In this document: positions 3,724-59,063 of the stretch, piece after piece
Numbering within the stretch: the stretch's first letter is position 1
Layout of the letters: every line of letters starts with the position of its first letter
Assembly (NCBI GenBank): GCA_022824725.1
Contig: JAJDZH010000018.1
Coordinates: forward strand, 321 to 64,320
Length of the DNA stretch: 64,000 nucleotides
Origin: Thermoanaerobaculia bacterium
GTDB taxonomy: Bacteria > Acidobacteriota > Thermoanaerobaculia > Multivoradales > Multivoraceae
Reading direction: 5' to 3'
The notes under the pieces: generated by a model
Told to the model about the DNA's origin: nothing
Seen by the model: only the letters and a program-made list of their open reading frames with translations
Database searches by the model: none
Position numbers and translations under genes: made by a program

Positions 3724-5258
3724 GTCGTGCCTCTCCGGGCGTCGCGGCGCGCCGCGAGGCGCCAGTTCGACCGCGGGGCGCCGCCGCCGGCCGCGGCCGC
3801 GGTTCCGTTCGTCTCGGCCCGCTTGAGGTGGGCGAGGACGGCGGCGAGGACGGGAAGGTCGGCCTCCAGGGCGTCGTCTTCCGGCGCGGCCGGTCGCAAC
3901 TCGCCGTTCTCGAGCTTGCGATCGAGCATCGAGATGTCCATGTTGCCCGTCGTGAAGTCCTCGTCCTCGAGCAGTTGCTCGAAGAGGGGCAGGTTGGTGC
4001 GGATGCCCTCGACCCGGGTTTCGGCGAGCGCCCGCCTGAGGCGGGCCAGAGCGTCGTTCCGGTCGCTCCCCCAGACGATCAGCTTGGCCAGCATCGGGTC
4101 GTAGTGGATCGTGACCTCGGCGCCCTCGTACACGCCGCAGTCATTCCGGACACCGGGACCCTCCGGCAGTTGGAGCAGTTCGATCCGGCCGGGCGAAGGA
4201 GCGAAGTTGCGGAACGGATCCTCCGCGTACAGGCGGACCTCGACCGCGTGCCCCCGGGGCTCCAGGCCGTTCTCCAGCGCTTCCGGCAGCGGTTCGCCGG
4301 CCGCGATGTCGAGCTGGGCGGCGACGATGTCGATGCCGGTGACCAGCTCGGTCACCGGATGCTCGACCTGGATTCTCGTGTTCATCTCCAGGAAGTAGAA
4401 CTCTCCCCCGGGATCGAGCAGGAACTCCACCGTGCCCGCGCCGACGTAGTTCACGGCGGCCGCGGCGCGGACCGCCGCTTCGCCCATGCGGCGGCGAAGA
4501 TCCGCGTCGACGGCGGGCGACGGCGCCTCTTCGACGACCTTCTGGTGCCTTCGTTGCAGGGAGCACTCCCGTTCGCCGAGGGAGACGATTCGGCCGTGGC
4601 GGTCGCCGAGTACCTGGATCTCGACGTGGCGGGGCCGCTCGACGAAGCGTTCGACGTAGACGGAGGCGTCGTTGAAGCTGGCGCCTGCCTCCGAGGTCGC
4701 GCCCCGGAACGCCGCTTCCAGTTCGCTCTCCTCGCGCACCAACCGCATCCCCTTGCCGCCGCCGCCGGCGGAAGCCTTGAGCATGACCGGATAGCCGACC
4801 TCGCCAGCCGCCTCGCGCGCCGCTTCGGCGGAGGCCAGGGGGTCGGTGCCCCCCGGAACGATGGGTACGCCGGCGGCGGTCATCAGGCGCCGGCTCTCGA
4901 TCTTCGAACCCATCGCGGCGATCGCCGCGGAGGGCGGCCCGATGAAGGCAATGCCGCGTTCCTCGCAGAGGCGCGCGAACCCGGCGTTCTCGGACAGGAA
5001 GCCGTAGCCGGGGTGGATCGCGTCGGCGCCGACGGCCGCGGCCAGGTCGACGATTCTCCCGGCCTGAAGGTAGCTCTCGATCGAGGGCGCGGGGCCGATG
5101 CAGTGGGCCTCGTCCGCCATCTGCACGGCCAGACCGTCGCGGTCCGCCTCCGAGTAGACGGCGACCGAGACGATGCCGCGTTCGCGGAGCGCCCGGATCA
5201 CCCGCACCGCGATCTCGCCGCGGTTCGCGACGACTACCTTCTTCAGGCCGTTCTTCAT
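3714..5258 (-). CDS. accC: biotin carboxylase (acetyl/acyl-CoA carboxylase BC subunit) with C-terminal extension
   Basis: KVVVANRGEIAVRVIRA, ATP-grasp motifs GGGGKGMR and EMNTRIQVEHPVTE; about 60 extra aa at the C-terminus. Confidence 0.9.
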   Translation of the reverse strand: MKNGLKKVVVANRGEIAVRVIRALRERGIVSVAVYSEADRDGLAVQMADEAHCIGPAPSIESYLQAGRIVDLAAAVGADAIHPGYGFLSENAGFARLCEERGIAFIGPPSAAIAAMGSKIESRRLMTAAGVPIVPGGTDPLASAEAAREAAGEVGYPVMLKASAGGGGKGMRLVREESELEAAFRGATSEAGASFNDASVYVERFVERPRHVEIQVLGDRHGRIVSLGERECSLQRRHQKVVEEAPSPAVDADLRRRMGEAAVRAAAAVNYVGAGTVEFLLDPGGEFYFLEMNTRIQVEHPVTELVTGIDIVAAQLDIAAGEPLPEALENGLEPRGHAVEVRLYAEDPFRNFAPSPGRIELLQLPEGPGVRNDCGVYEGAEVTIHYDPMLAKLIVWGSDRNDALARLRRALAETRVEGIRTNLPLFEQLLEDEDFTTGNMDISMLDRKLENGELRPAAPEDDALEADLPVLAAVLAHLKRAETNGTAAAAGGGAPRSNWRLAARRDARRGTTWN

Positions 5259-5309: not shown

Positions 5310-5345
5310 TTCCTCGGAAGCCGGCGGGGGCGCCGGCGCACCCAG
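5310..5345. repeat. solo copy of the REP/MITE core (GGGGCGCCGGCGCACCCAGTG) in a divergent intergenic region
   Basis: Matches the palindromic core seen at 11 other loci in this window. Confidence 0.6.
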
Positions 5346-37495: not shown

Positions 37496-37620
37496 CTCAC
37501 CTGGCCGCCTACTGGGTGCGCCGGCGCCCCCGCAGGCTGCCCCCGCAGGCGGTCGGAAAGACGCGCCGGCCGCAAGGCCGGCTCCGCTGCGGCGGCCGGT
37601 TGAGTGCTACTGGCGGGAAG
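37496..37620. repeat. REP/MITE-like element (type 2 tail GCTGCC..CGCAGGCGG..GCCGGCCGCAAGGCCGGCTCC)
   Basis: Core CTACTGGGTGCGCCGGCGCCCCCGCAGGC followed by the GGCCGGCCGCAAGGCCGGCTCC hairpin. Confidence 0.7.
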
Positions 37621-39926: not shown

Positions 39927-40010
39927 TGGCTGTATGCCAATCTGATGCGCGTCGGATGAAGGTCCGAAACGGCAAGCCTGCGATGCGTTTCAGCGCGCTG
40001 GCAGTCTTTC

Positions 40011-40130
40011 GGACTGGGGGCGGCACACTGGGTGCGCCGGCGCCCTCGCCGGCTCGTAGCCGCGGGTCTTCCGACCCGGGGAAAGAAGACGCGCCGCGAA
40101 GCGGCGACCATCCTGCCGCGCTAGCTCGAC
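40011..40130. repeat. REP/MITE-like element (type 1, full length)
   Basis: CACTGGGTGCGCCGGCGCCCTCGCCGGC...CCGCGGGTCTTCCGACCCGGGG...GCGCCGCGAAGCGGCGACCATCCTGCCGCGCTAG. Confidence 0.75.
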
Positions 40131-45389: not shown

Positions 45390-46243
45390 GCAGGAGCGAC
45401 GGCGTCGCACCGGCCTGGATGGCGACGTAGAACGCCGGCGTCGCCAGCAGAACGCTGTCGAGACGGTCGAGCAGCCCGCCATGGCCGGGCAGAAGGCCCC
45501 CCGTGTCCTTGACCTGCACGGCTCGCTTGAGCATCGACTCGACCAGGTCTCCGGCCTGCCCCGCGCCGCCGCAGAGCAGCGCCACGACGGGGACGTCCGG
45601 GCCGAGCGCTTCGGGACCGCGCCAGAGCAGGACGACCGCGACCCCGGCGGCGCAACTGGCGGCCAGGCCGCTCACCGCGCCCGCGATCGTCTTCTTCGGG
45701 CTGAGCACCGGCGCCAGCGGCCGGCGTCCGAGCAGGCGGCCGCCGTAGTAGGCGCCGATGTCGCCCAGGGAGACGACGACCAGGACCCAGAGCAGGAGCA
45801 CCGGTTCGACGACGTGGAGTTTGATGGCGGCGACCAGGAACAGCCCGAGCCAGAGGGCGCCGAAGGCGAACAGAGCCGAGGCAAGAAGCCGATCGCGGAT
45901 GTCGGCGTGGCTGGCGAGTCCGACCGCGGCGGTCAGGGCGAGGATGGCGGCCGCGGCGGCGAACCAGGTGCCGGCGCCGCTCAGGCCAGCCGGCAGCGGC
46001 ACGTCGATCAGCTCGTTCGCGGTCGTGTCGGCCAGGGCCAGCACGCCGACCGCGAGCCATAGCGCCCAGCTCACGGTGCGCGATACGACGATCCTCCGCA
46101 CCAGGGTGCCGTACTCGGCCGCGGCCACGAGAATCACGAGCGTGGCCGCCACTCCGAACAGAACGGGGTCGAGGTAGAGGACCAGGGCGGCCGTCAGCGC
46201 CGCGGTCACGACGCCCGTGACAACGCGTTTCATTTGCGGGAAT
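45385..46243 (-). CDS. cdsA: phosphatidate cytidylyltransferase
   Basis: Multi-TM protein; the C-terminal PLAPVLSPKKTIAG...HGGLLDRLDS motif is diagnostic. Confidence 0.8.
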
Positions 46244-46988
46244 CGTATTCCACGCTGTCCAGGCACAGGCCGCGGGCAGGGGCGTTCGGTCCGGCGGCGC
46301 TGCGGGCGCCACCCTTGAGCAGCGCCGCCAGATCGGCCAGCGTCCGGCGGCCGCGGCCCACCTCCAGCATCGTGCCCACCAGGGCGCGGACCATGCCGCG
46401 AAGGAATCCGTCGCCGGCGACCCGGAACCGGATCTCGTCCCCCTGTTCGGCCCATCCGGCTTCGCGAATCGTCCGCAGCGGACTCCCGTGGCTGCCGCCC
46501 GCCTTGGCGAAGGCCGAGAAGTCGTGCCGGCCCGTGATCAGGGCGGCGGCGGTCTTCATCGACTCGAGATCGAGTTCTCGCGGCGCCGGGACGACGAAGG
46601 GCGCCCGGAACGGGTCGATCACCGGCGCGGTGCAGAGTCGATAGATGTAGACCTTGAGCGAGGCGCTCTTGCGGGCGTGAAACGAGTCGTCGGCGGCGTC
46701 GGCGGCGAGCACCCGGATCGCCGCCGGGAGGTGGTGGTTCACGCCCTGGACGAGCGCCCGGCGGGTTTCGCCGGACGGCACGTTCCCGGCGGGAAGGTCG
46801 AGGTGCGCCGTCTGGCCGGCGGCGTGGACGCCGGCGTCGGTGCGGCCGGCCCCATGGACGGTGGCGTTCCGGCCGGTAACCGCCGCCACTGCCTCCTCCA
46901 CCAACTGCTGGATCGCCAGGGCGTTGTCCTGGCGTTGCCAGCCGGCATGGTCCGACCCGTCGTAGGCGATCAGCAGGCGGTACCTCAT
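46230..46988 (-). CDS. truA: tRNA pseudouridine(38-40) synthase
   Basis: MRYRLLIAYDGSDHAGWQRQ...GAGRTDAGVHA catalytic-Asp region. Confidence 0.8.
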   Translation of the reverse strand: MRYRLLIAYDGSDHAGWQRQDNALAIQQLVEEAVAAVTGRNATVHGAGRTDAGVHAAGQTAHLDLPAGNVPSGETRRALVQGVNHHLPAAIRVLAADAADDSFHARKSASLKVYIYRLCTAPVIDPFRAPFVVPAPRELDLESMKTAAALITGRHDFSAFAKAGGSHGSPLRTIREAGWAEQGDEIRFRVAGDGFLRGMVRALVGTMLEVGRGRRTLADLAALLKGGARSAAGPNAPARGLCLDSVEYDSRK

Positions 46989-48590
46989 GGTGTTGGCGTC
47001 CTGGAACGTCGGCGGTCGATCAGGAACAGGCACAGCGGCGGCAGCCAGACGGCGCCGTAGACCCAGGGAAAGTACGGAACTCCGGCGAGAGCCGGAAGAT
47101 ACGCCAGGGGCAGGGTCGCCGAAAGCACGAGGATCGCGCGGGCGCCGGTCAGCGCCGCCCAGGGGAGGAGCCAGATCAGGTACCACGGGTAGAACGTGGG
47201 GCTCATCAGGAGAACGGCGCCGAAGGCGCCGAACGCGGCCCGGACCGGTCCCGGACGCCGCCGCCACAGGCGAAGCCAGAGAGCGGCGGCGGCGACCAGG
47301 AGCACGAGGCGGGCGAGGAACTGGGGATAGGCGTAGGAGTAGAGCGTGCTCCACGGAGTCGCCGCGACCTCGCCGCCGAAGATCACCCGGACCAGGTGGA
47401 CGACCCCGGAAGCGGCCAGGTCGAGCCGCAGCACTCCGATCAGGCGCCACAGCGGCTCGTAGAAGGGACCGTTGTACTCCCAGCGCAGCGCGTACTCCAC
47501 GAGACCGGGCGGCACGCCGCGGGTCCACAGCAGCACGGCGGCCGTCGCCGGCAGCAGCAGCGCGGCAGCGCCGACCGCGAAGCGCCGCCTCTGCCGGCCA
47601 TCGCCGTACCGCCACCAGAGAGGCAACGCGACCAGGGGCACCAGCTTCGCCAGCACGGCAAGAGCAGCCACCATCCCGGCCGCCCCCCACTGGGCGCCCC
47701 GGCGCCCCGGCGGAGCGAGGCCTTCGGCCTCGCGCGTGTTCTTCGGAGGGCCGACGAGGGCGTCGGCGCACCCAGTGTGCAACTCCGTCGCCGCCTCCCA
47801 CTGGGTGCGCCGGCGCCCTCGTCGGCTGCCGCCGGAGGCGGCCTGAGAATCGGGCCGGCCGTCAGGCTGGCCACCTCTCGTCCGCCCGCCAACCCCAAGC
47901 AGCCACACACAACCGACAACCAGCGACGCCCCCAGCACGTCGACATGCCCCATGCCGGCCCCCTCGACGACCAGCAGCGGATTCCAGACGTACGCGAGAG
48001 CCGCCCAGCCATTGCCGCGACGCCGCGCCAGCGCCAGCAGCAGAACACAGCCGGCCAGGTCCACGGCGGCCAGCGCCAGCTTGTAGGCAAGCAACGGCTC
48101 GGGAAGGACCGCGGCGCCGGCGAAGATTCCCAGTGCCAGCGGCGGATACACAGTGGCGATCTCGCGATGTCCGGTCTTCGTCCAGAGGTCGTCACGCAAC
48201 CCGGCGAGGCTCTCGTCGTCCGGCGTCAGGAGATACGGGTTCGATCCCGAGGCGGCGACCCGTCCGTCCCACAGGTAGCGGTAGACGTCGTCGGAGAGGC
48301 CCGGGGTCAGCGGCAGCGCGAGCAGGCGGAGCACGACGGCCACCGCCAGGACGCCCGCGACCGGAACCTCGCGCCGCGAGTCCGTCGCCGCGCCGAGGCG
48401 GCGCAGCCCCCACCACAGCGCGGCGAACGCCAGCAGCAGGACCAGCAGGAAGGAGATGCCGGCGCCCGGAGCGCCCGGCGCCGGTCCGAAGCCGGCGAAG
48501 TCGAGCGCCAGGAGCGCGGCGAAGCAGGCGAGCAGGGGCCAGGCCGCGGCCAGCGCCGCGGAGCGGTCGCCGCTTCTCGGCGCGTCTTCT
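46985..48590 (-). CDS. GT-C-fold membrane glycosyltransferase (DUF2029/GT87-like), carrying an in-frame repeat insertion
   Basis: Multi-TM; loop motif LSDDVYRYLWDGRVAASGSNPY; the ORF reads through a 200-bp composite repeat at 47680-47880; the 5' end is uncertain (no ATG downstream of the upstream repeat). Confidence 0.5.
47680..47880. repeat. composite head-to-head REP/MITE element inside a coding region
   Basis: GAGCGAGGCCTTCGGCCTCGCGCG...GGGCGTCGGCGCACCCAGTG-24nt-CACTGGGTGCGCCGGCGCCC...GCTGCCGCCGGAGGCGGCC; near identical to the element at 58320-58500. Confidence 0.7.
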
Positions 48591-48660
48591 TTCCGCGGGT
48601 CGGAAGACCCGCGGCTACGAGCCGGCGGGGGCGCCGGCGCACCCAGTCCGGCAACGCCGG
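48590..48660. repeat. REP/MITE-like element (type 1, inverted orientation) in a divergent intergenic region
   Basis: Reverse complement of the 40040-40100 unit: GGCGCGTCTTCTTTCCGCGGGTCGGAAGACCCGCGGCTACGAGCCGGCGGGGGCGCCGGCGCACCCAGT. Confidence 0.7.
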
Positions 48661-48707
48661 CTCCCGGTGCTCCTGGCATTCGTGGCCTTGCCATATCGTC
48701 AACGTCC

Positions 48708-50195
48708 GTGCTTCTGCCGGTCTACTACGCCGTTCTCGGTACGCTCGCTCTCTACGGACTGCATCGCCTGGTCCTGCTCCTGGTGCTTCGCGTGTCGCGA
48801 TCGTCGGTCGCCGGCGAGGATGGCGGCGCGGACGCCGCTGGCGTCCAAGATAGCGCGCAGGACGATGTCGAGTGGCCCCGGGTCACCGTCCAACTGCCGA
48901 TCTACAACGAGCGCTACGTCGCGCCCCGGTTGATCGCCGCCGTTCTCGACTTCGACTACCCCGCGGATCGGCTCGAGGTCCAGATCCTCGACGACTCGAC
49001 CGACGACACCGCCGCCCGGGTCGAGGCCGAGCTTGCCCGGGCGTCCGGGCGGAACCGGCCGTTACCGACCGTTCGGCACCTGCGGCGGAAGGATCGGCGG
49101 GGTTTCAAGGCGGGCGCGCTCGCCGCCGGTCTGGAGCGGGCGCGGGGGGAGCTGATCGCGATCTTCGATGCCGACTTCGTGCCGGAACCCGACTTCCTGC
49201 GGCGGACGGTGCCAGTCTTCCGCGATCCCGGCCTGGGCATGGTCCAGGCGTGCTGGGGCCACATGAACCGCAGGGACTCGCTCCTGACCCGCGCTCAGGC
49301 CGTACTCCTGGACGGCCACTTCCTGGTCGAGCAGGCGGCTCGCTACCGGGCGGGCTGCTTCTTCAACTTCAACGGCACAGCGGGGGTGTGGCGGCGGCGG
49401 GCGATCGAGGACGCGGGAGGGTGGCAGGTCGACACCCTGACCGAGGATCTCGACCTCTCCTACCGGGCGCAGCTCGCGGGCTGGCGCTTCATGCTGATGA
49501 CGGACCTCGCGGTGCCGGCGGAGTTGCCGGCCCGGGTCAACGACTTCAAGAGCCAGCAACACCGCTGGGCCCGGGGATCCGCCCAGACGATGCGCAAGCT
49601 CCTCGGGCGGATCCTGCGCAGCGGGGTGAGGCCGCGGGTCAAGCTGGCGGCTGCCGCGCACCTCACGTCGGGCATCTGCTACCCGCTGCTCGTGGCTCTC
49701 GGCCTCCTCCTGTTGCCGGCCATCCTGGAGCGGCAGGAGTCGCCGCACCTGCTGCTGTGGATCGACGCACCCCTGTTCCTGCTCGGGACGGTGGCGGTCG
49801 CCGGTTGCTACGCCGCCGGCCAGCGCCGGGCCGGGAGGCGCGGGTCCAGGTTCTGGTTCGAGGTGCCGCTCGCGATGTCCATCGGCATCGGCCTGTCGCT
49901 CAACAACTCGGCCGCGACGATCAGCGGCCTGCTGCGCCGCGGCGGCGTCTTCGCCCGTACGCCGAAGATCCCGGCCGCCGCCCGGAACCCGCCCGCGCTC
50001 TACAGGTCGGCCGCGGTATGGAGTCTCTGGGGCGAAGCGACTCTCGCGCTCTACTTCTGGGCCTGCGTTGCCGCCGCGGGACTCTACGGTCGCTGGTGGT
50101 CCCTGCCCTTTCTCTACCTGTTCGCCCAGGGGTATAGCCTGATCGCCCTCGGCGGCGCCCTGCCCCGGCTGGGGCGGCGTGCCGAAACCACGTAG
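48708..50195 (+). CDS. GT2-family processive glycosyltransferase (cellulose-synthase-like/CslA-like)
   Basis: DDSTDDT, DADF and QQHRWARG (QxxRW) motifs with flanking TM helices; proposed GTG start at 48708. Confidence 0.7.
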   Translation: MLLPVYYAVLGTLALYGLHRLVLLLVLRVSRSSVAGEDGGADAAGVQDSAQDDVEWPRVTVQLPIYNERYVAPRLIAAVLDFDYPADRLEVQILDDSTDDTAARVEAELARASGRNRPLPTVRHLRRKDRRGFKAGALAAGLERARGELIAIFDADFVPEPDFLRRTVPVFRDPGLGMVQACWGHMNRRDSLLTRAQAVLLDGHFLVEQAARYRAGCFFNFNGTAGVWRRRAIEDAGGWQVDTLTEDLDLSYRAQLAGWRFMLMTDLAVPAELPARVNDFKSQQHRWARGSAQTMRKLLGRILRSGVRPRVKLAAAAHLTSGICYPLLVALGLLLLPAILERQESPHLLLWIDAPLFLLGTVAVAGCYAAGQRRAGRRGSRFWFEVPLAMSIGIGLSLNNSAATISGLLRRGGVFARTPKIPAAARNPPALYRSAAVWSLWGEATLALYFWACVAAAGLYGRWWSLPFLYLFAQGYSLIALGGALPRLGRRAETT

Positions 50196-50205
50196 CAGCC
50201 CGGCG

Positions 50206-50769
50206 ATGACCAGCCCCCTGACACGTCATCCACCGCCTCCTCCCGCGATCGACGTCGTCGTGCGGCCGGCGCGGCCTTCGGATGCGGCGTTCCTCCGTCG
50301 CTGGCGCGCCGAACCCGCCGTGCGCCGCTACCAGCCCCTTCACAACGTGTCCGTCGCCAGGCTGCGTGCTGACCTTGCCGCGCAGCGCCCCAGGGACCTC
50401 TACCGCGGTCGCGGCGAGCGCTACACCTGGATGATCGAAACCGACAGCGAACGCTCGGGCTGGATCACTCTGGCGGTCGTGAACTGGGAGCATGGCCTGG
50501 GCGAACTTGGCTATGCCCTGGCGACGCAGCATCATGGCCGCGGCACGATGACGGCCGCGCTCGGCCAGTTGCTGCCCGAACTCCTCCTGCGAACGCCGCT
50601 GGAGCGCCTGGAGGCCCGCTGCGCGATCGACAACGACGCCTCCCGCAGGGTGCTGGAGAAGCTGGGATTCGTGCGCGAAGGCAGGCTTCGTTCCTACTTC
50701 GTGCTGCAGGGCCGGCGAACCGACCACTTCCTGTACGCGTTGCTCCGCGAGGACTACATTCCGGCGTAG
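50206..50769 (+). CDS. GNAT-family N-acetyltransferase (RimJ/RimL-like)
   Basis: Acetyl-CoA-binding region HGRGTMTAAL and C-terminal LEKLGFVREGRLR. Confidence 0.65.
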   Translation: MTSPLTRHPPPPPAIDVVVRPARPSDAAFLRRWRAEPAVRRYQPLHNVSVARLRADLAAQRPRDLYRGRGERYTWMIETDSERSGWITLAVVNWEHGLGELGYALATQHHGRGTMTAALGQLLPELLLRTPLERLEARCAIDNDASRRVLEKLGFVREGRLRSYFVLQGRRTDHFLYALLREDYIPA

Positions 50770-50770
50770 C

Positions 50771-50935
50771 CTGCGCCGCCCACTGGGTGCGCCGGCGCCC
50801 TCGCCGGCCTTCCGTGGAAAGCGCGCCGCGAGATTCCGCTGTAGCCTGCGCCGCCCACTGGGTGCGCCGGCGCCCTCGCCGGCCTTCCGTGGAAAGCGCG
50901 CCGCGAAGCGGCGACCATTCTGCGCTAGGGTTGCG
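50771..50935. repeat. two tandem REP/MITE-like units (~80 bp each)
   Basis: Direct duplication of CCTGCGCCGCCCACTGGGTGCGCCGGCGCCCTCGCCGGCCTTCCGTGGAAAGCGCGCCGCGA...; the second copy ends in GCGACCATTCTGCGCTAG. Confidence 0.8.
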
Positions 50936-50992
50936 CGTTCCAGGTTAGTCGGTAGGCCGAGTGGTCGGCAGGCGTCGAGTCGGAGGTAGTGG

Positions 50993-52792: not shown

Positions 52793-55195
52793 GTGGACTT
52801 CCGTTCCCGGCTGAACCCGGAACAACTCGCGGCGGTCACCCACGACGGCGGCCCGTTGCTCGTCGTCGCCGGCGCCGGATCGGGCAAGACCCGGGTCATC
52901 ACGTACCGGATCGCCTGGCTGATCGCCGAGCGGAACGTCGAGCCGTGGCGGATCGCGGCCGTCACCTTCACCAACAAGGCCGCGGACGAGATGCGCGGGC
53001 GGGTGCTCGACCTGGTCGGCGGCAATGCCCACCCGGTTGGCGCGTCCCCGCGCCAACCGCGAACGGGTGCCCGCGCTCGTCAGCGGGCGCGGGGACGGCA
53101 TGTCTTCGTCGGCACCTTCCACCGCTTCTGCGTCCGCCTGCTGCGGCGCTACGGCGACCGGGTGGGTCTGCGGCCGGACTTCGCGATCGTCGACGCGCCG
53201 GACCAGTTGCGGCTGATCAAGGGGTCGCTCAAGGCCGAGAACCTCGACGAACAGGTCTTCCAGCCGCGCGCGGTCCAGGGGCGGATCAGCGGGGCGAAGA
53301 ACCGTCTGCTCACGCCGCCCGCCTTCGAGAAGGAGGCCGAGGACTTCTTCGACCGTCATGTCGCCCTCGTGTTCCGCCGGTACCAGGCCGAGCTGCGGCG
53401 CACCGGCGGCGTCGACTTCGACGACCTGATCGCGCTCGCCGTGCGCCTGCTGCGCGACGACGAGGAGGTCGGCGCGCAGGTCAGGGGGCGCTTCCGCCAC
53501 CTGCTCGTCGACGAGTTCCAGGACACGAACACGGCCCAACTGGAGCTCGTGAAGAACCTGGTGATCGACCCGGACGGTTCCGTCTCGGGCCTGACCGCGG
53601 TCGGCGACGAGGACCAGAGCATCTACGGCTGGCGCGGGGCCGAACTCGACAACCTGCTGCGGTTCGAGAAGCACTTCCCGGGCGGCGGGGTCCGCAAGCT
53701 GGAGCGGAACTACCGCTCGACGCAGAACATCCTCGACGCCTCGGGCGCCGTCATCTCGCGCAACGAACAGCGCCGGGGCAAGACCCTGTGGACGGACAAG
53801 GGCGCCGGCGACCCCCTGGAGGTCTTCTACGCCGGCGACCACGAGGACGAGGCGCGCTGGGTCGTCGGGCGGTTGGCGGAACTCCGCACGGAGGGGTTCG
53901 AGTTCGGCGACATGGCGGTGCTGGTGCGGACGAACGCGCAGACCCGGGCGATCGAGGACCGGTTGCTGCGCGACGAGATCCCCTACTGCCTGGTCGCCGG
54001 CATCCGGTTCTACGAGCGCGCCGAGGTCAAGGACCTGATCGCCTACCTGCGGGTCATCGCCAACCCGCGGGACAACCTCTCCCTGCGCCGGATCCTGAAC
54101 CAGCCGCGGCGGGGCATCGGCGGCAGGACCGAGCAGGTGCTGCTCGAGCGCGCCGCCGAAATGGGCAACTCGCTGTGGGATGCGATCCGCCTCGACCCCC
54201 TGCAGGAGCTGCCGGCCCGCAGCCTGCGCGCGGTCCGGAACTTCAAGGGCCTGATCGAGGCGCTGCGCGGAGAGGCCGAGCGCCAGCCCCTGGCCGAACT
54301 CGTCCGCGGCACGATCGTCGCCGCCGGCTTCGAGGCGCTCTACGGCAAGGGCGACGAGGAGGCCCAGGAACGGCTCGAGAACCTGAACGAGCTCGTGTCG
54401 TCGGCCCACGACTTCGAGTCCCTGCACGGCCTGAGCGGCGTTCCGGCGAGGATGGCCGCCGCTCCCGGCGATGCAGAGAGCCCGGAAGCCGGCGAGGCGT
54501 CGCTCTTCGACGAGGGGCCGGAAGCGGTCGAGCCGGCCGTCAGTCCCCTGGTGAACTTCCTGGACTACGTCTCCCTGGTCAGCGACGCGGACGGCCTGAA
54601 CGCCGAACTGGGCGTCGCCCTGATGACGCTGCACAGCGCCAAGGGTCTCGAGTATCCGGCCGTCTTCGTCACCGGTCTCGAGGACGGCCTGCTCCCGCAC
54701 TTCCACGCCGGCCTCGCGGCGCGGGACATCGAGGAGGAGAGGCGGCTGTTCTACGTCGGCATGACCCGGGCCGAGCAGCGGCTGTTCCTCAGCGGCTGCC
54801 GGCGCCGGATGGTCGCCGGACAGTTCCAGGACCAGCAGCCGTCGCCCTTCCTCGCCGACCTGCCGGAGGAACTCGTCGAAACCACGCGGAGCACGGAACT
54901 CTGGGGCGGCCCGCGGACCGCCGGCGTGCGCAGCTACTTCGGCGCCGACCGCACCGGCGGGGGGGCGTCCTTTCGGGCCGCGCGCGACAGCGGCGCCAGG
55001 CCGGCAAGGAAACCGCCGAGCGACCGGATCGCCGGCGTGCTGCGGCCCGGCGCCGTCGTCCGCCACGCGACCCTGGGCAAGGGCGTCGTTCTGCAGCTCG
55101 ACGGAGACGGCGAGAACGCGAAGCTGACGGTGTTCTTCGACAAGGCCGGCAAGCGGAAGCTGGTCCGCCGCTACGCCCCGCTCGAAGTGCTCTAG
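52793..55195 (+). CDS. uvrD: UvrD/PcrA/Rep-family ATP-dependent DNA helicase
   Basis: Helicase motifs GAGSGKT, TFTNKAA, VGTFH, VDEFQDT, GDEDQSIY; ~20-aa palindrome-encoded insertion before VGTFH. Confidence 0.85.
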   Translation: MDFRSRLNPEQLAAVTHDGGPLLVVAGAGSGKTRVITYRIAWLIAERNVEPWRIAAVTFTNKAADEMRGRVLDLVGGNAHPVGASPRQPRTGARARQRARGRHVFVGTFHRFCVRLLRRYGDRVGLRPDFAIVDAPDQLRLIKGSLKAENLDEQVFQPRAVQGRISGAKNRLLTPPAFEKEAEDFFDRHVALVFRRYQAELRRTGGVDFDDLIALAVRLLRDDEEVGAQVRGRFRHLLVDEFQDTNTAQLELVKNLVIDPDGSVSGLTAVGDEDQSIYGWRGAELDNLLRFEKHFPGGGVRKLERNYRSTQNILDASGAVISRNEQRRGKTLWTDKGAGDPLEVFYAGDHEDEARWVVGRLAELRTEGFEFGDMAVLVRTNAQTRAIEDRLLRDEIPYCLVAGIRFYERAEVKDLIAYLRVIANPRDNLSLRRILNQPRRGIGGRTEQVLLERAAEMGNSLWDAIRLDPLQELPARSLRAVRNFKGLIEALRGEAERQPLAELVRGTIVAAGFEALYGKGDEEAQERLENLNELVSSAHDFESLHGLSGVPARMAAAPGDAESPEAGEASLFDEGPEAVEPAVSPLVNFLDYVSLVSDADGLNAELGVALMTLHSAKGLEYPAVFVTGLEDGLLPHFHAGLAARDIEEERRLFYVGMTRAEQRLFLSGCRRRMVAGQFQDQQPSPFLADLPEELVETTRSTELWGGPRTAGVRSYFGADRTGGGASFRAARDSGARPARKPPSDRIAGVLRPGAVVRHATLGKGVVLQLDGDGENAKLTVFFDKAGKRKLVRRYAPLEVL

Positions 55196-55205
55196 CGGGG
55201 TGCCG

Positions 55206-55282
55206 TGGTGCGCCCGAAGGGATTCGAACCCCTGACCTACGGCTCCGGAGGCCGTCGCTCTATCCAGCTGAGCTACGGGCGC
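55206..55282 (-). tRNA. tRNA-Arg (anticodon CCG)
   Basis: Reverse complement folds as GCGCCCGUAGCUCAGCUGGAUAGAGCGACGGCCUCCGGAGCCGU...GGUUCGAAUCC...CGGGCGCACCA; CCA is encoded. Confidence 0.85.
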
Positions 55283-55309
55283 GCGAACGGGACGATTTCG
55301 GAATCGGGA

Positions 55310-55386
55310 TGGGGTGGATGAGGGGACTTGAACCCCCAACCACTTGAACCACAATCAAGCGCTCTACCGGTTGAGCTACATCCACC
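55310..55386 (-). tRNA. tRNA-His (anticodon GTG), with encoded G-1
   Basis: Reverse complement G-GUGGAUGUAGCUCAACCGGUAGAGCGCUUGAUUGUGGUUCAAG...GGUUCAAGUCCCCUCAUCCACCCA. Confidence 0.8.
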
Positions 55387-55416
55387 AGACATCTTCAAAC
55401 CGAACTCTCAACGATC

Positions 55417-55493
55417 TGGCCTGCCTGGAGGGACTCGAACCCCCGACCCGCGGCTTAGAAGGCCGCCGCTCTATCCAGCTGAGCTACAGGCAG
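55417..55493 (-). tRNA. tRNA-Arg (anticodon TCT)
   Basis: Reverse complement CUGCCUGUAGCUCAGCUGGAUAGAGCGGCGGCCUUCUAAGCCGCGGGUC...GGUUCGAGUCCCUCCAGGCAGGCCA. Confidence 0.85.
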
Positions 55494-55542
55494 GCGAAAG
55501 CGACAGCGACAGGTTAGCCGAGGTCCGGGCTAGCGAGCGATA

Positions 55543-55615
55543 TCGGGGCGCCCAGATTTGAACTGAGGACCCCCTGCGCCCAAGGCAGGTGCGCTACCAG
55601 ACTGCGCCACGCCCC
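55543..55615 (-). tRNA. tRNA-Pro (anticodon TGG)
   Basis: Reverse complement CGGGGCGUGGCGCAGUCUGGUAGCGCACCUGCCUUGGGCGCAGGGGGUCCUCAGUUCAAAUCUGGGCGCCCCGA; CCA is not encoded. Confidence 0.8.
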
Positions 55616-55666
55616 GACAGGCAAGGCGGCGAATGATAGCAGCCTTGCCCTTTATGCTCTGACGGA

Positions 55667-57586: not shown

Positions 57587-58314
57587 ACGGGCGCGGGGGA
57601 GAGAGTCCGGTCGCCGCGCGTCGCGACGGCCGGCCGCGGCTCCGGGGCGTCTCGCTGGACGCGACCGGAACGCTGATCGGCTGCCCTCGCCGCGGTGAGA
57701 TCTACGCCGAAGTCCTCGCCCGCCATGGTCTCGAACTCTCAGCCGCCGACATCGAGCGGGGCTTCCTGACCGCCTGGAAGGAGTTCGAGTGCCGCCTCGC
57801 CCGCGGCGAGGACCGCTACAACAGCCATCCGAACGGAGCTCGCGGTTTCTGGGGCGACCTGCTGGAGCGCATGTGTCTCCTGCTCGAGCGGGAAGCGCCG
57901 GGACCCTTCGCCGGCGCCGAACTGTTCGCCCGCTTCGAACGCGCCGACGCCTGGGAACTCCGGCCCGGATGCCGGAAGGTCCTCACGGAGCTGCGTCGTC
58001 GGGGCCTGCGCGTCGCGGTCACCAGCAACTGGGACCGGCGCCTGCCGCGGGTGCTGGCCAACCTCGGACTCGGGCGTTACCTCGACGCGGTCGTCTGCTC
58101 GGAGGACGTGGGTTCGGCGAAACCGGCCGAGCCGATCTTCCTGGCCGCCTGCCGGGAACTGGAGCTGGAACCGGCCTGCGTGCTCCACGTCGGCGACGCG
58201 AAGATCGAGGATCGCGAAGGAGCGTTGGCGGCCGGCCTCGAGGCGCTGTGGCTGAACCCGGCGGGTGGCGACATCGGCTCGTTGGACGAGGTTCTCGACT
58301 ACCTGCCCCAGTAG
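57583..58314 (+). CDS. HAD-superfamily hydrolase
   Basis: TTGA overlap start; motif I SLDATGTL, then VTSNWD and the VGDAKIEDREGA motifs. Confidence 0.65.
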   Translation: MNGRGGESPVAARRDGRPRLRGVSLDATGTLIGCPRRGEIYAEVLARHGLELSAADIERGFLTAWKEFECRLARGEDRYNSHPNGARGFWGDLLERMCLLLEREAPGPFAGAELFARFERADAWELRPGCRKVLTELRRRGLRVAVTSNWDRRLPRVLANLGLGRYLDAVVCSEDVGSAKPAEPIFLAACRELELEPACVLHVGDAKIEDREGALAAGLEALWLNPAGGDIGSLDEVLDYLPQ

Positions 58315-58319
58315 GAGCC

Positions 58320-58500
58320 GGCCGCCGCCAGCGGAGCGAGGCCTTCGGCCTCGCGCGTTTTCTTCAGAAGGCCGACGAGGGCGTCGGCGCACCCAGTGTG
58401 CAACCCCGTCGCCATCCGACACTGGGTGCGCCGGCGCCCCCGCCGGCTGCCGCCGCAGGCGGCCAGGAAACCGCGCCGGCCGCAAGGCCGGCTCCTTACT
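58320..58500. repeat. composite head-to-head REP/MITE element (near-twin of 47680-47880)
   Basis: GAGCGAGGCCTTCGGCCTCGCGCGTTTTCTTCAGAAGGCCGACGAGGGCGTCGGCGCACCCAGTG-25nt-CACTGGGTGCGCCGGCGCCCCCGCCGGCTGCCGCCGCAGGCGGCCAGGAAACCGCGCCGGCCGCAAGGCCGGCTCC. Confidence 0.8.
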
Positions 58501-58540: not shown

Positions 58541-59047
58541 ATGAAGATCTCCACCAAGGGTGAGTACGGCATCCGCGCCATGCTGTACGTGGCGATGCAT
58601 GCGGACGGCGGTCCGGTGCCCAGCCACGAGATCGCCGTGAACCAGGGGATCCCGGAGCCCTACCTGCGCCAGATCCTGGCGGCCCTCGCCCGGGACCACC
58701 TGATCCGCTCGAACCGCGGTCCCCAGGGCGGCCACCTGCTGGGCCGGCCGGCCGAGAACATCTCGATGCACGACATCCTGGTCGCGCTGGAAGGACACAC
58801 GACCTCGATCGACCACATCCTCGCCCAGCCCTGCACGATCGGCGTGGGGCCGAAGCACTGCGCTATCCGCGAAGTGTTCCTCAGCGTCAAGGAGGCGGTC
58901 GAGACCATCTTGTGCAACTACAGCCTCGCCGATCTGGCCGCGCGCCAGGAGGAAGTCTGCGAGTGCAAGATCGAGATCCCGCACGACCTGCCGCCGGAAC
59001 GCGTTGCCGCTTCGTCCGCCCGGCCGCTGCACGTCATCGCCGACTGA
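58541..59047 (+). CDS. Rrf2-family transcriptional regulator (IscR/NsrR-like)
   Basis: MKISTKGEYGIRAMLYVA winged-helix N-terminus; clustered Cys residues (CxxxxxxxxC, CxC). Confidence 0.75.
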   Translation: MKISTKGEYGIRAMLYVAMHADGGPVPSHEIAVNQGIPEPYLRQILAALARDHLIRSNRGPQGGHLLGRPAENISMHDILVALEGHTTSIDHILAQPCTIGVGPKHCAIREVFLSVKEAVETILCNYSLADLAARQEEVCECKIEIPHDLPPERVAASSARPLHVIAD

Positions 59048-59063
59048 AACCGGGAACCCGCCG

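Follow-up and report, generated by a model that had tools for sequence, protein, structure and literature searches.

Palindromic repeats that lie in frame inside protein-coding genes are known from Rickettsia, as Rickettsia palindromic elements (RPEs) (Ogata 2000 Science 290:347; 2002 Genome Res 12:808; PMC10969869). Repetitive extragenic palindromic sequences (REPs) of the GTAG/CGTC type have been described in frame within genes of Opitutus, Thauera, Xanthomonas, and others, notably UvrD/Rep helicase genes and repair genes (Di Nocera et al. 2013, PMC3733652). [quoted passage not shown] The present analysis concerns a 64,000-nt stretch of DNA (64 kb, 70.6% GC) from a bacterium of the Thermoanaerobaculia (Acidobacteriota), hereafter the window, to which all window coordinates refer. 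Two units of a hairpin-forming repeat family lie in frame inside one of its genes, which is predicted to encode a GT-C membrane glycosyltransferase. The element works like RPEs, intragenic REPs, and ORF-carrying MITEs, and is not filed here under any of the named families; such in-frame palindromes are known in Rickettsia and a few other bacteria and were previously undescribed in this lineage. We consider it likely that the segment is a tolerated and translated REP/RPE-like insertion in a functional GT-C glycosyltransferase gene. The organism labels of related loci place the window among 'Candidatus Multivorans'/Thermoanaerobaculia metagenome-assembled genomes (MAGs). The isolate labels of the related 'Candidatus Multivorans' loci are those of marine sponge metagenomes, presumably the habitat of the clade.

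The host gene (46985..48694, minus strand) is one uninterrupted frame of 569 codons, and its 569-aa product includes two repeat-derived inserts. The main insert, bounded by the ortholog alignment, occupies 47687..47881 on the minus strand (195 nt, 65 codons, residues 272-336, TRGGQPDG...GRRGAQW) and encodes a peptide with 11 Lys plus Arg, 7 Asp plus Glu, and 11 Gly residues. The second insert (48557..48670, minus strand; 114 nt, 38 codons, residues 9-46) sits just past the conserved start MAR... and consists of a type C unit of the repeat family with its core at 48629-48647(-). A first-pass annotation made from the window alone had described a composite repeat lying in frame inside a GT-C membrane glycosyltransferase gene, and the 569-codon ORF, the repeat match, and the GT-C/GT87-like character of both flanks bear this out. 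The N-terminal unit and a third, degenerate core within the main insert had escaped it.

Both inserts are built from a family whose 19-nt core, ACTGGGTGCGCCGGCGCCC, occurs 15 times in the 64 kb, against 0.19 copies expected from dinucleotide shuffles. The family consensus is the core CACTGGGTGCGCCGGCGCCCyCGCCGGC with interchangeable hairpin tails. Core-oriented copies have in common CACTGGGTGC and the 7-bp hairpin GCCGGCG-CCCy-CGCCGGC, the invariant 5' flank of the core hairpin being ACTGGGTGC, and then continue into one of four hairpin-rich tails. By core-oriented alignment, tail A follows the cores at 37511, 47800, 58421, and 59636(-), tail B those at 5328, 23249, 50782, and 50857, tail C those at 40027 and 48629, and tail D those at 47758 and 58379. 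Of the 11 repeat loci, nine lie between genes, mostly no more than about 30 nt from a gene's 3' end, where the copies may act as 3'-end hairpins; the other two are in the host gene. Counted by cores, 11 of the 15 lie outside the host gene, none of them in coding sequence. The cores recur at syntenic intergenic positions in relatives, and the copies are therefore long-lived. The family is restricted to close relatives: the exact core was found in L005 and L014 only, and looser matches only inside the clade (L-numbers denote related loci retrieved by tblastn, one genome per species and independently of gene calls, from about 42 species-level genomes).

The main insert holds three cores, at 47689 (plus strand, degenerate), 47758 (minus), and 47800 (plus). 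The type A unit (47800..47874, plus strand) consists of the core 47800-47818 and the tail hairpins GCCGCC-GGA-GGCGGC and GGCCGGCC-GTCA-GGCTGGCC, and has paralogs at 37511, 58421, and 59636(-). The type D unit (47708..47776, minus strand) has its core at 47758-47776(-) and a tail hairpin GCGAGGCC-TTCG-GGCCTCGC at 47715-47733, with a paralog at 58332-58397. Between these head-to-head cores, 47777..47799 forms a spacer and the loop of a long hairpin. The two full cores fold into a near-perfect stem of about 30 bp, and the hairpin has a dG of -141.8/-140.8 kcal/mol (z -6.6/-6.1) on the two strands. The degenerate core (47689..47707, plus strand) has two mismatches and is a direct repeat of the core 47800-47818, 111 nt apart; two orthologs (L005 and L002, below) show a deletion and a duplication of 111 nt that probably arose between these two repeats. 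Inverted cores (47689-47707, 47758-47776) bracket the D unit; units of types A, B, and C have just a single terminal core.

An intergenic paralog of the whole composite, with reversed D unit, spacer, and A unit, lies at 58306..58499 on the plus strand, directly after a HAD-hydrolase gene and before an Rrf2 gene. Its spacer resembles that of the main insert, and the two composites (47689-47874 and 58306-58499) both form stems of about 30 bp with z of -6 to -8. The first-pass annotation had called this copy near-identical and intergenic. It is homologous and intergenic, but window 47685-47871 matches 58306-58492 at 83% (85% column identity in the alignment), which is not near-identity. The degenerate end of the intergenic composite (58306-58315) overlaps the last codons and the TAG stop (58313-58315) of the HAD-hydrolase gene. 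For the N-terminal insert, window 48549-48647 is 91% reverse-complementary to the intergenic 40027-40125, part of a type C paralog at 40003..40125 (plus strand). A consensus scan found terminator-like hairpins with T-tracts at 47715-47733 and 48568-48582, on the plus strand only and so antisense to the host gene; the D-unit hairpin of the intergenic composite (GCGAGGCC-UUCG-GGCCUCGC, then GCGUUUUCUUC) is sense to the upstream HAD gene. With two cases, a filter against sense-strand terminators inside genes is suggestive at best. The broader view that every intergenic copy serves as a sense-oriented terminator was given up, as the B units at 50758-50936 do not fit.

The history of the main site can be read from the length of DNA between the conserved motifs GMGHVD and VLAKL. 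Most outgroups have a short native loop of 84-93 nt, and L014, L015, L016, L019, L020, L022, L023, and L037 have 'empty' alleles of 87 nt; six of these (L014-L023 without L015) match the window at 86-91% identity in their best tblastn segment. Most clade B species have an unrelated native loop of 111 nt. The full composite gives 282 nt in the window, L001, L003, and L159, and 354 nt in L002, where a 111-nt duplication and a 39-nt deletion have been added. L005 (171 nt) lacks the 111 nt that separate direct cores 1 and 3 and has just the A unit, and in L006 (150 nt) an internal deletion joins the A tail to the D tail. A mini-core encoding GGSRRGRRRTQW remains in L004, L017, L018, and L026 (111 nt), and a mini-core with different breakpoints in L021 and L024 (108 nt). 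In L158 (240 nt) the D unit has been replaced by another two-hairpin module. Compensated frameshifts had been suspected in the ortholog P0025 and were discarded, since its DNA shows a D unit replaced by another hairpin module. A metagenome scan with the host protein returned distant GT-C relatives only and no further alleles.

All eight length states of the main site (87 to 354 nt) are multiples of three, without a stop codon at the site. They need at least eight independent indel events, for which (1/3)^8 is about 1.5e-4. Empty alleles have 39 or 42 nt at the N-terminal site, measured between the conserved ATG (MAR...) and the WPLLAC motif; the window and L001 have 153 nt, L026 63 nt, L002 48 nt, and L006 69 nt. 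The insert is missing from most orthologs, and L026, L002, and L006 keep different pieces of the C unit; at least four independent indels are needed here, all in frame with the conserved ATG. This preservation has a rationale only where translation begins at that ATG and runs on through the insert. Neither segment is present in the outgroups or in several orthologs of about 90% identity, and the sequence comparison therefore identifies both as insertions. The first-pass annotation had suggested a search of related genomes for an empty site, which the 87-nt alleles and the outgroups supply, and had held that homologs sharing the segment would speak against an insertion. The segment is indeed shared at the protein level, by the orthologs P0002-P0010 and L001-L003, but it is built from a repeat family and is missing from outgroups and about 90%-identical orthologs; its presence in other species means that the insertion is an old one, handed down by vertical descent and by recombination.

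Pairwise dN/dS (Nei-Gojobori) of the regions flanking the main insert is 0.19-0.32 in all pairs, including the window against L001 and L003, all of which bear the insert (dS 0.31-0.37; L001 0.37). The enzyme has therefore been under purifying selection with the insert present. The main insert itself has a dN/dS of 0.60-0.74, and its variable columns are spread evenly over codon positions (11/16/17, against 44/39/110 in the flanks). GC at codon positions 1/2/3 is 0.77/0.72/0.83 in the main insert and 0.82/0.82/0.71 in the N-terminal insert, against 0.76/0.54/0.88 in the rest of the gene, whose coding signature the insert does not have. From the elevated dN/dS, the lack of codon-position bias, and the absence of the coding GC signature, the insert peptide is seen to be close to neutral passenger sequence.

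The full-length host protein has no match in Pfam. With both inserts removed it matches GT87 (PF09594) at 23.9 bits, where the cutoff is 25; P0012, an ortholog free of inserts, scores 25.3 bits, and PF26314 (MptA_B_family) is precomputed on orthologs. A sequence-profile search of the PDB found no relatives; these came from the fold search only. The AlphaFold2 model, built from an 84-sequence alignment, has a mean predicted local distance difference test score (pLDDT) of 86.3 and a predicted template modeling score (pTM) of 0.85. Confidence is low (pLDDT under about 60) only at residues 1-40 and about 271-330, that is, in the two inserts, with 40-55 in the main and 40-58 in the N-terminal insert. 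Foldseek matches of the model are GT-C enzymes: the best are GPI-MT-I (9wno), ArnT (5f15), and PimE (9dm5), and ALG3 and PIG-U are also among them. In the LSDDVYRY motif of the first extracytoplasmic loop, orthologs do not vary at S134 or D136 and vary little at D135. These results predict a polytopic, GT87/MptA_B-like glycosyltransferase of GT-C fold whose first extracytoplasmic loop bears an acidic motif. Two GT-C enzymes that depend on polyprenyl-phosphate sugars, the GT87 enzyme PimE and GPI mannosyltransferase I (PDB 9dm5, 9wno; PMC12041525), have the fold in common with the host protein (Foldseek probability 1.0), as well as the DD motif in the first periplasmic loop, the short sixth helix, and the borderline Pfam GT87 match. 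On the other hand, identity is only 13-16%, the host protein has two additional N-terminal helices, and the solved enzymes are without its disordered 65-aa and 38-aa inserts.

PimE has 12 transmembrane (TM) helices with both termini in the cytoplasm and the catalytic loop PL1 after TM1; its cytoplasmic loops connect TM2-3, TM4-5, and TM8-9, and TM6 has just 11 residues (PMC12041525). When the helices of the host model are mapped onto PimE in order, residues 112-126 correspond to TM1, 200-225 to TM2 (followed by RRRGNG), 229-247 to TM3 (followed by GMGHVD), 252-270 to TM4 (followed by the main insert), 331-349 to TM5, and 352-363 (12 residues) to the short TM6. Because this order matches PimE, the main insert is predicted to lie in the TM4-TM5 cytoplasmic loop, distant from the periplasmic catalytic loops. 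Cytoplasmic placement agrees with the positive-inside parity over the whole protein and with the net charge of +4 of the insert. The N-terminal insert would lie in the cytoplasmic tail, likewise distant from the catalytic loops.

The window allele is a recombination mosaic around the insert, as seen in its nucleotide differences from other alleles. Along most of the gene, short-loop alleles (L014, L016, L019) share 92-97% identity with the window, and L001 shares 80-90%. In roughly 150 nt on either side of the insert, identity is 74-80% to the short-loop alleles, 86% to L001, and 88-93% to L005. The pattern of the window at the 24 sites of fixed difference between the two groups is EEEEEEEE-II.I.II-EEEEEEEE (E, as in short-loop alleles; I, as in insert-bearing alleles; Fisher p=0.003). 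The neighbor-joining tree of the local segment conflicts with that of the remaining gene, in which the grouping has 100% bootstrap. L021 and L024 belong to the other subclade yet contain a mini-core patch, which looks like a transfer by homologous recombination. The first-pass annotation had called the element clearly mobile relative to the gene; this holds historically, whereas the local presence or absence reflects a homologous-recombination tract and not recent transposition. On the simplest reading, the composite would have been inserted once, long ago, and eroded in frame in many lineages, and homologous recombination would have moved insert-bearing or short-loop tracts between co-occurring relatives.

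We propose that a REP/MITE-like hairpin-forming repeat, whose original mode of entry was presumably transposition, inserted into a cytoplasmic loop and has since been carried as translated passenger sequence. Several properties would have made it tolerable: its 195 nt are a multiple of three and are read without a stop codon, its terminator-like hairpin and T tract lie on the antisense strand, and the peptide that it would encode is Arg/Gly-rich, of net positive charge, and predicted to be disordered and to lie in the cytoplasm between the equivalents of PimE TM4 and TM5. The second unit would have entered the cytoplasmic N-terminal tail under the same rules. Selection on the enzyme would then filter later changes, so that the element could shrink or grow only through in-frame deletions and duplications, partly between its own direct repeats. 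That the insertion sits in a tolerated loop was one of two options left by the first-pass annotation, and it is the one favored by the empty and eroded in-frame orthologs, the purifying selection on the flanks, and the predicted GT-C fold with a disordered loop.

A number of observations weigh against this account. Every sequence compared is MAG-derived, although five independent assemblies contain the full composite and long assemblies at chromosome level (L006, L026) show derived states. The conflict of the local tree has a bootstrap of only 65%, L015 (87 nt) nests among insert-bearing alleles in that tree, and the 87-nt alleles are either virgin sites or complete deletions. The window holds no transposase, RAYT or other, and comparison of the 87-nt and 282-nt alleles gave no convincing target-site duplication. 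The topology comes from helix order, the positive-inside rule, and the analogy to PimE, not from coordinates, and translation of the full-length protein is something that we infer. Finally, in L159/P0040 a TAG replaces the conserved Tyr in SYA[Y]PQF (L159 about 2725-2727), well downstream of the insert, and the gene call is split. This single disrupted allele reflects either recent pseudogenization or a sequencing or assembly error; hence the gene is not indispensable everywhere, or the assembly is wrong.

The most serious rival to a tolerated passenger is an insert that is itself selected, either because the cytoplasmic Arg/Gly-rich peptide is functional (in interaction, in regulation, or as a topology anchor) or because the 30-bp mRNA or DNA hairpin regulates the gene and the translationally coupled truA. 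The full-length composite is retained in at least five assemblies of different species (the window allele, L001, L003, L159, and L002, which has an additional copy), several species still encode the mini-core peptide GGSRRGRRRTQW, and an insert-bearing tract has recombined into a new backbone. Per-site divergence of the insert (0.12-0.18) is below flank dS (0.30-0.37), and the hairpin is kept in all five composite copies, with one compensatory pair. However, the dN/dS and codon-position pattern of the insert are those of a nearly neutral peptide, and stems are not significantly less variable than non-stems (25 of 126 paired against 19 of 69 unpaired columns, p=0.28), for which reason no selection on the hairpin structure is claimed. 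Many lineages have deleted part or all of the element, L158 has swapped half of it for an unrelated hairpin module, and close relatives manage without it. On balance we regard a selected insert as improbable.

The other option of the first-pass annotation, a gene disrupted by the element in which the frame survives by chance, fares much worse. Taken from one genome, it has something in its favor: the element is stop-free in four of six frames, 55% of random 195-nt window segments are stop-free, and the chance of an in-frame, stop-free insert is about 0.2; moreover, Pfam fails on the full-length protein, and one ortholog has a nonsense codon. It is the comparative allele data, not the single-genome frame, that exclude chance, with at least eight and at least four independent indels at two sites, all in frame. 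The flank dN/dS of 0.2-0.3 between insert-bearing lineages, a GC3 of 0.88 outside the inserts (a typical coding value here), the conserved ATGA overlap with truA, and the intact predicted fold also contradict a pseudogene, which we consider very unlikely. Still less probable is a native, fast-evolving loop from which the intergenic look-alikes were derived. Orthologs in other species do share the segment at the protein level, but most cores lie outside the gene, in noncoding sequence and with four different tails, outgroups and close relatives have short loops, the insert has no coding GC signature, and the same repeat family supplied the N-terminal insert. Removal or skipping of the element, by intron-like excision or ribosomal bypass, such that the peptide is never made, is hardly credible. 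The sequence is very stable and hairpin-rich, as such an element might be; yet Rfam at gathering thresholds reported four tRNAs only in the window, E-value mode added just sub-threshold matches of the long hairpin to microRNA-precursor-like families, and lengths and internal indels in multiples of three would not be needed if the element were skipped.

Like the insertions described here, RPEs are palindromes, of about 100-150 bp, that occur between genes and in frame in unrelated genes, with peptides compatible with the fold, host genes under selection, and some N-terminal sites. In-frame palindromes in genes that stay functional are thus found in both systems, function here being judged from selection on the nucleotide sequence. 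A sequence relationship is not expected, as base composition and host phylum make homology very unlikely: the host here is a GC-rich (70.6% in the window), free-standing and presumably sponge-associated Acidobacterium, whereas Rickettsia is an AT-rich, obligate intracellular alpha-proteobacterium. The present element is also modular, with a constant core and four tail types, its peptide is nearly neutral, and only two genes, with three inserts, are found in 64 kb.

The likeness to REPs, BIMEs, and REPINs (Bertels & Rainey 2011, PMC3116915; PMC3733652) lies in the high copy number of short, GC-rich palindromes, mostly extragenic near ORF 3' ends, in inverted doublets forming a long hairpin, and in persistence at orthologous sites; both the copy number with extragenic bias and the inverted-doublet hairpin are present in the window. 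In-frame REPs in UvrD/Rep helicases (PMC3733652) also have a counterpart in the hairpin insert of the window's UvrD/PcrA gene. However, there is no consistent GTAG/CGTC tag, the tetranucleotide that marks one end of the stem-loop in such REPs (PMC3733652): GTAG stands beside the stem only in two type C units, and CGTC only inside the stem of three variant cores. No RAYT gene is found in the 64-kb window, where the only gene-flanking inverted pair encloses Rrf2 and a lipoprotein-like ORF. In addition, the doublet arms here carry different tails, and the Thermoanaerobaculia are not among the lineages described. As with MITEs, small non-autonomous repeats have fused in frame with host ORFs, and the D unit is bracketed by inverted cores resembling terminal inverted repeats; unlike MITEs, there is no identified target-site duplication or parent insertion sequence, and most units have a core at one end only.

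The phenomenon extends beyond this repeat family. The UvrD/PcrA helicase gene (52793-55195) carries a separate in-frame hairpin insert at 53033..53101 on the plus strand (net +66 nt, about 22 aa, HPVGASPRQPRTGARARQRARGR), located between motif Ia and the VGTFH motif and missing from PcrA structures and from 12 homologs, one of them 91% identical. It contains a perfect 11-bp hairpin, CGGTTGGCGCG-TCCC-CGCGCCAACCG (53034-53059), which came to light when the window was screened for hairpins and is of a different type from the core family. Thus, two of roughly 55 window genes carry three in-frame hairpin inserts. Further in-frame inserts occur in predicted cytoplasmic segments of GT87 orthologs: 117 nt in L003 (3803-3919, with the hairpin CTGGTGGCGCG-TCTC-CGCGCCACCAG of the TGGCGCG-TCyC-CGCGCCA type), a module of the same type at about 2290-2360 of L158, where it replaces the D unit of the composite, 78 nt in L035 (5207-5284), and 84 and about 190 nt in L011 (3965-4048 and 4217-4408). 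Those of L003 and L158 are clearly hairpin-rich and share their hairpin type with the UvrD/PcrA insert. A search of the window for TGGCGCG-TCyC-CGCGCCA gave one exact copy, no more than expected by chance. The concatenated insert peptides (111 aa) had no match in a 5.8-billion-protein set, a search that missed even P0001 and is uninformative, and the 65-aa peptide had none in a 50%-identity representative library, which is uninformative about other protein families.

It is tempting to speculate, with a modest chance of being right, that several GC-rich palindromic families colonize coding sequences genome-wide in the 'Candidatus Multivorans' clade, as an RPE-like system that seeds Arg/Gly-rich disordered cytoplasmic loops, which are trimmed in frame and exchanged between species by homologous recombination. 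If so, repeats would regularly supply the lineage's proteins with variation in loops and length, and certain inserts or mRNA hairpins might have gained function. At the level of the single gene, the locus adds a further clear case outside Rickettsia of hairpin repeats absorbed into proteins, in an uncultured GC-rich symbiont lineage. Its allelic series, with empty site, full composite, half element, mini-core, internal deletions, duplication, and module replacement, displays frame filtering, erosion, and moves by recombination as selfish DNA becomes loop sequence of a membrane enzyme.

The inserts have practical effects on annotation. They drop the host protein below Pfam detection, from 23.9-25.3 bits without them to no match, and called starts are shifted in public records, to the second Met in P0001 (NCBI) and to a position after the N-terminal insert in P0004. 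In a 'Ca. Multivorans azotirespirans' MAG the GT87 gene is split over a pair of contigs, with L042 ending at 4651 and L013 beginning at 3. L042 ends with ...CVWLLSD, about 40 nt into the variable loop where relatives carry the composite; the element itself is not on the contig, and an assembly break at the repeat would fit.

Downstream of the host gene lies truA (tRNA pseudouridine synthase; 46230..46988, minus strand), whose ATG overlaps the TGA of the host gene (ATGA, 46985-46988), an overlap kept in relatives. On the other side a family-2 glycosyltransferase gene (48696..50195, plus strand; its true start is slightly downstream of 48696) is divergent from the host gene, again as in relatives, and the N-terminal insert falls in its upstream region. 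A cluster of four tRNA genes (Arg-CCG, His-GTG, Arg-TCT, Pro-TGG) occupies 55206-55617 on the minus strand.

Other copies of the family show their own dynamics. A GNAT acetyltransferase gene is separated from the next gene by two tandem type B units (50758-50906, 97% match, period 75 nt). Two type A units (58419-58499 and 59576-59656) are inverted, 1076 nt apart, and enclose the Rrf2 regulator gene and the lipoprotein-like ORF; the TAA stop of ORF 59004-59579 sits in the CCTTAC end common to both. They are 99% identical, whereas other A copies are 79-91% alike, which points to recent duplication or gene conversion; the pair possibly marks an invertible segment. Finally, a stretch of high GC2 at 301-372, in the 5' part of ORF 166-1602, encodes ...VGGSRRGRGEDLRRR, resembling the core-encoded GGSRRGRRR, and may be a decayed core upstream of or within that ORF.

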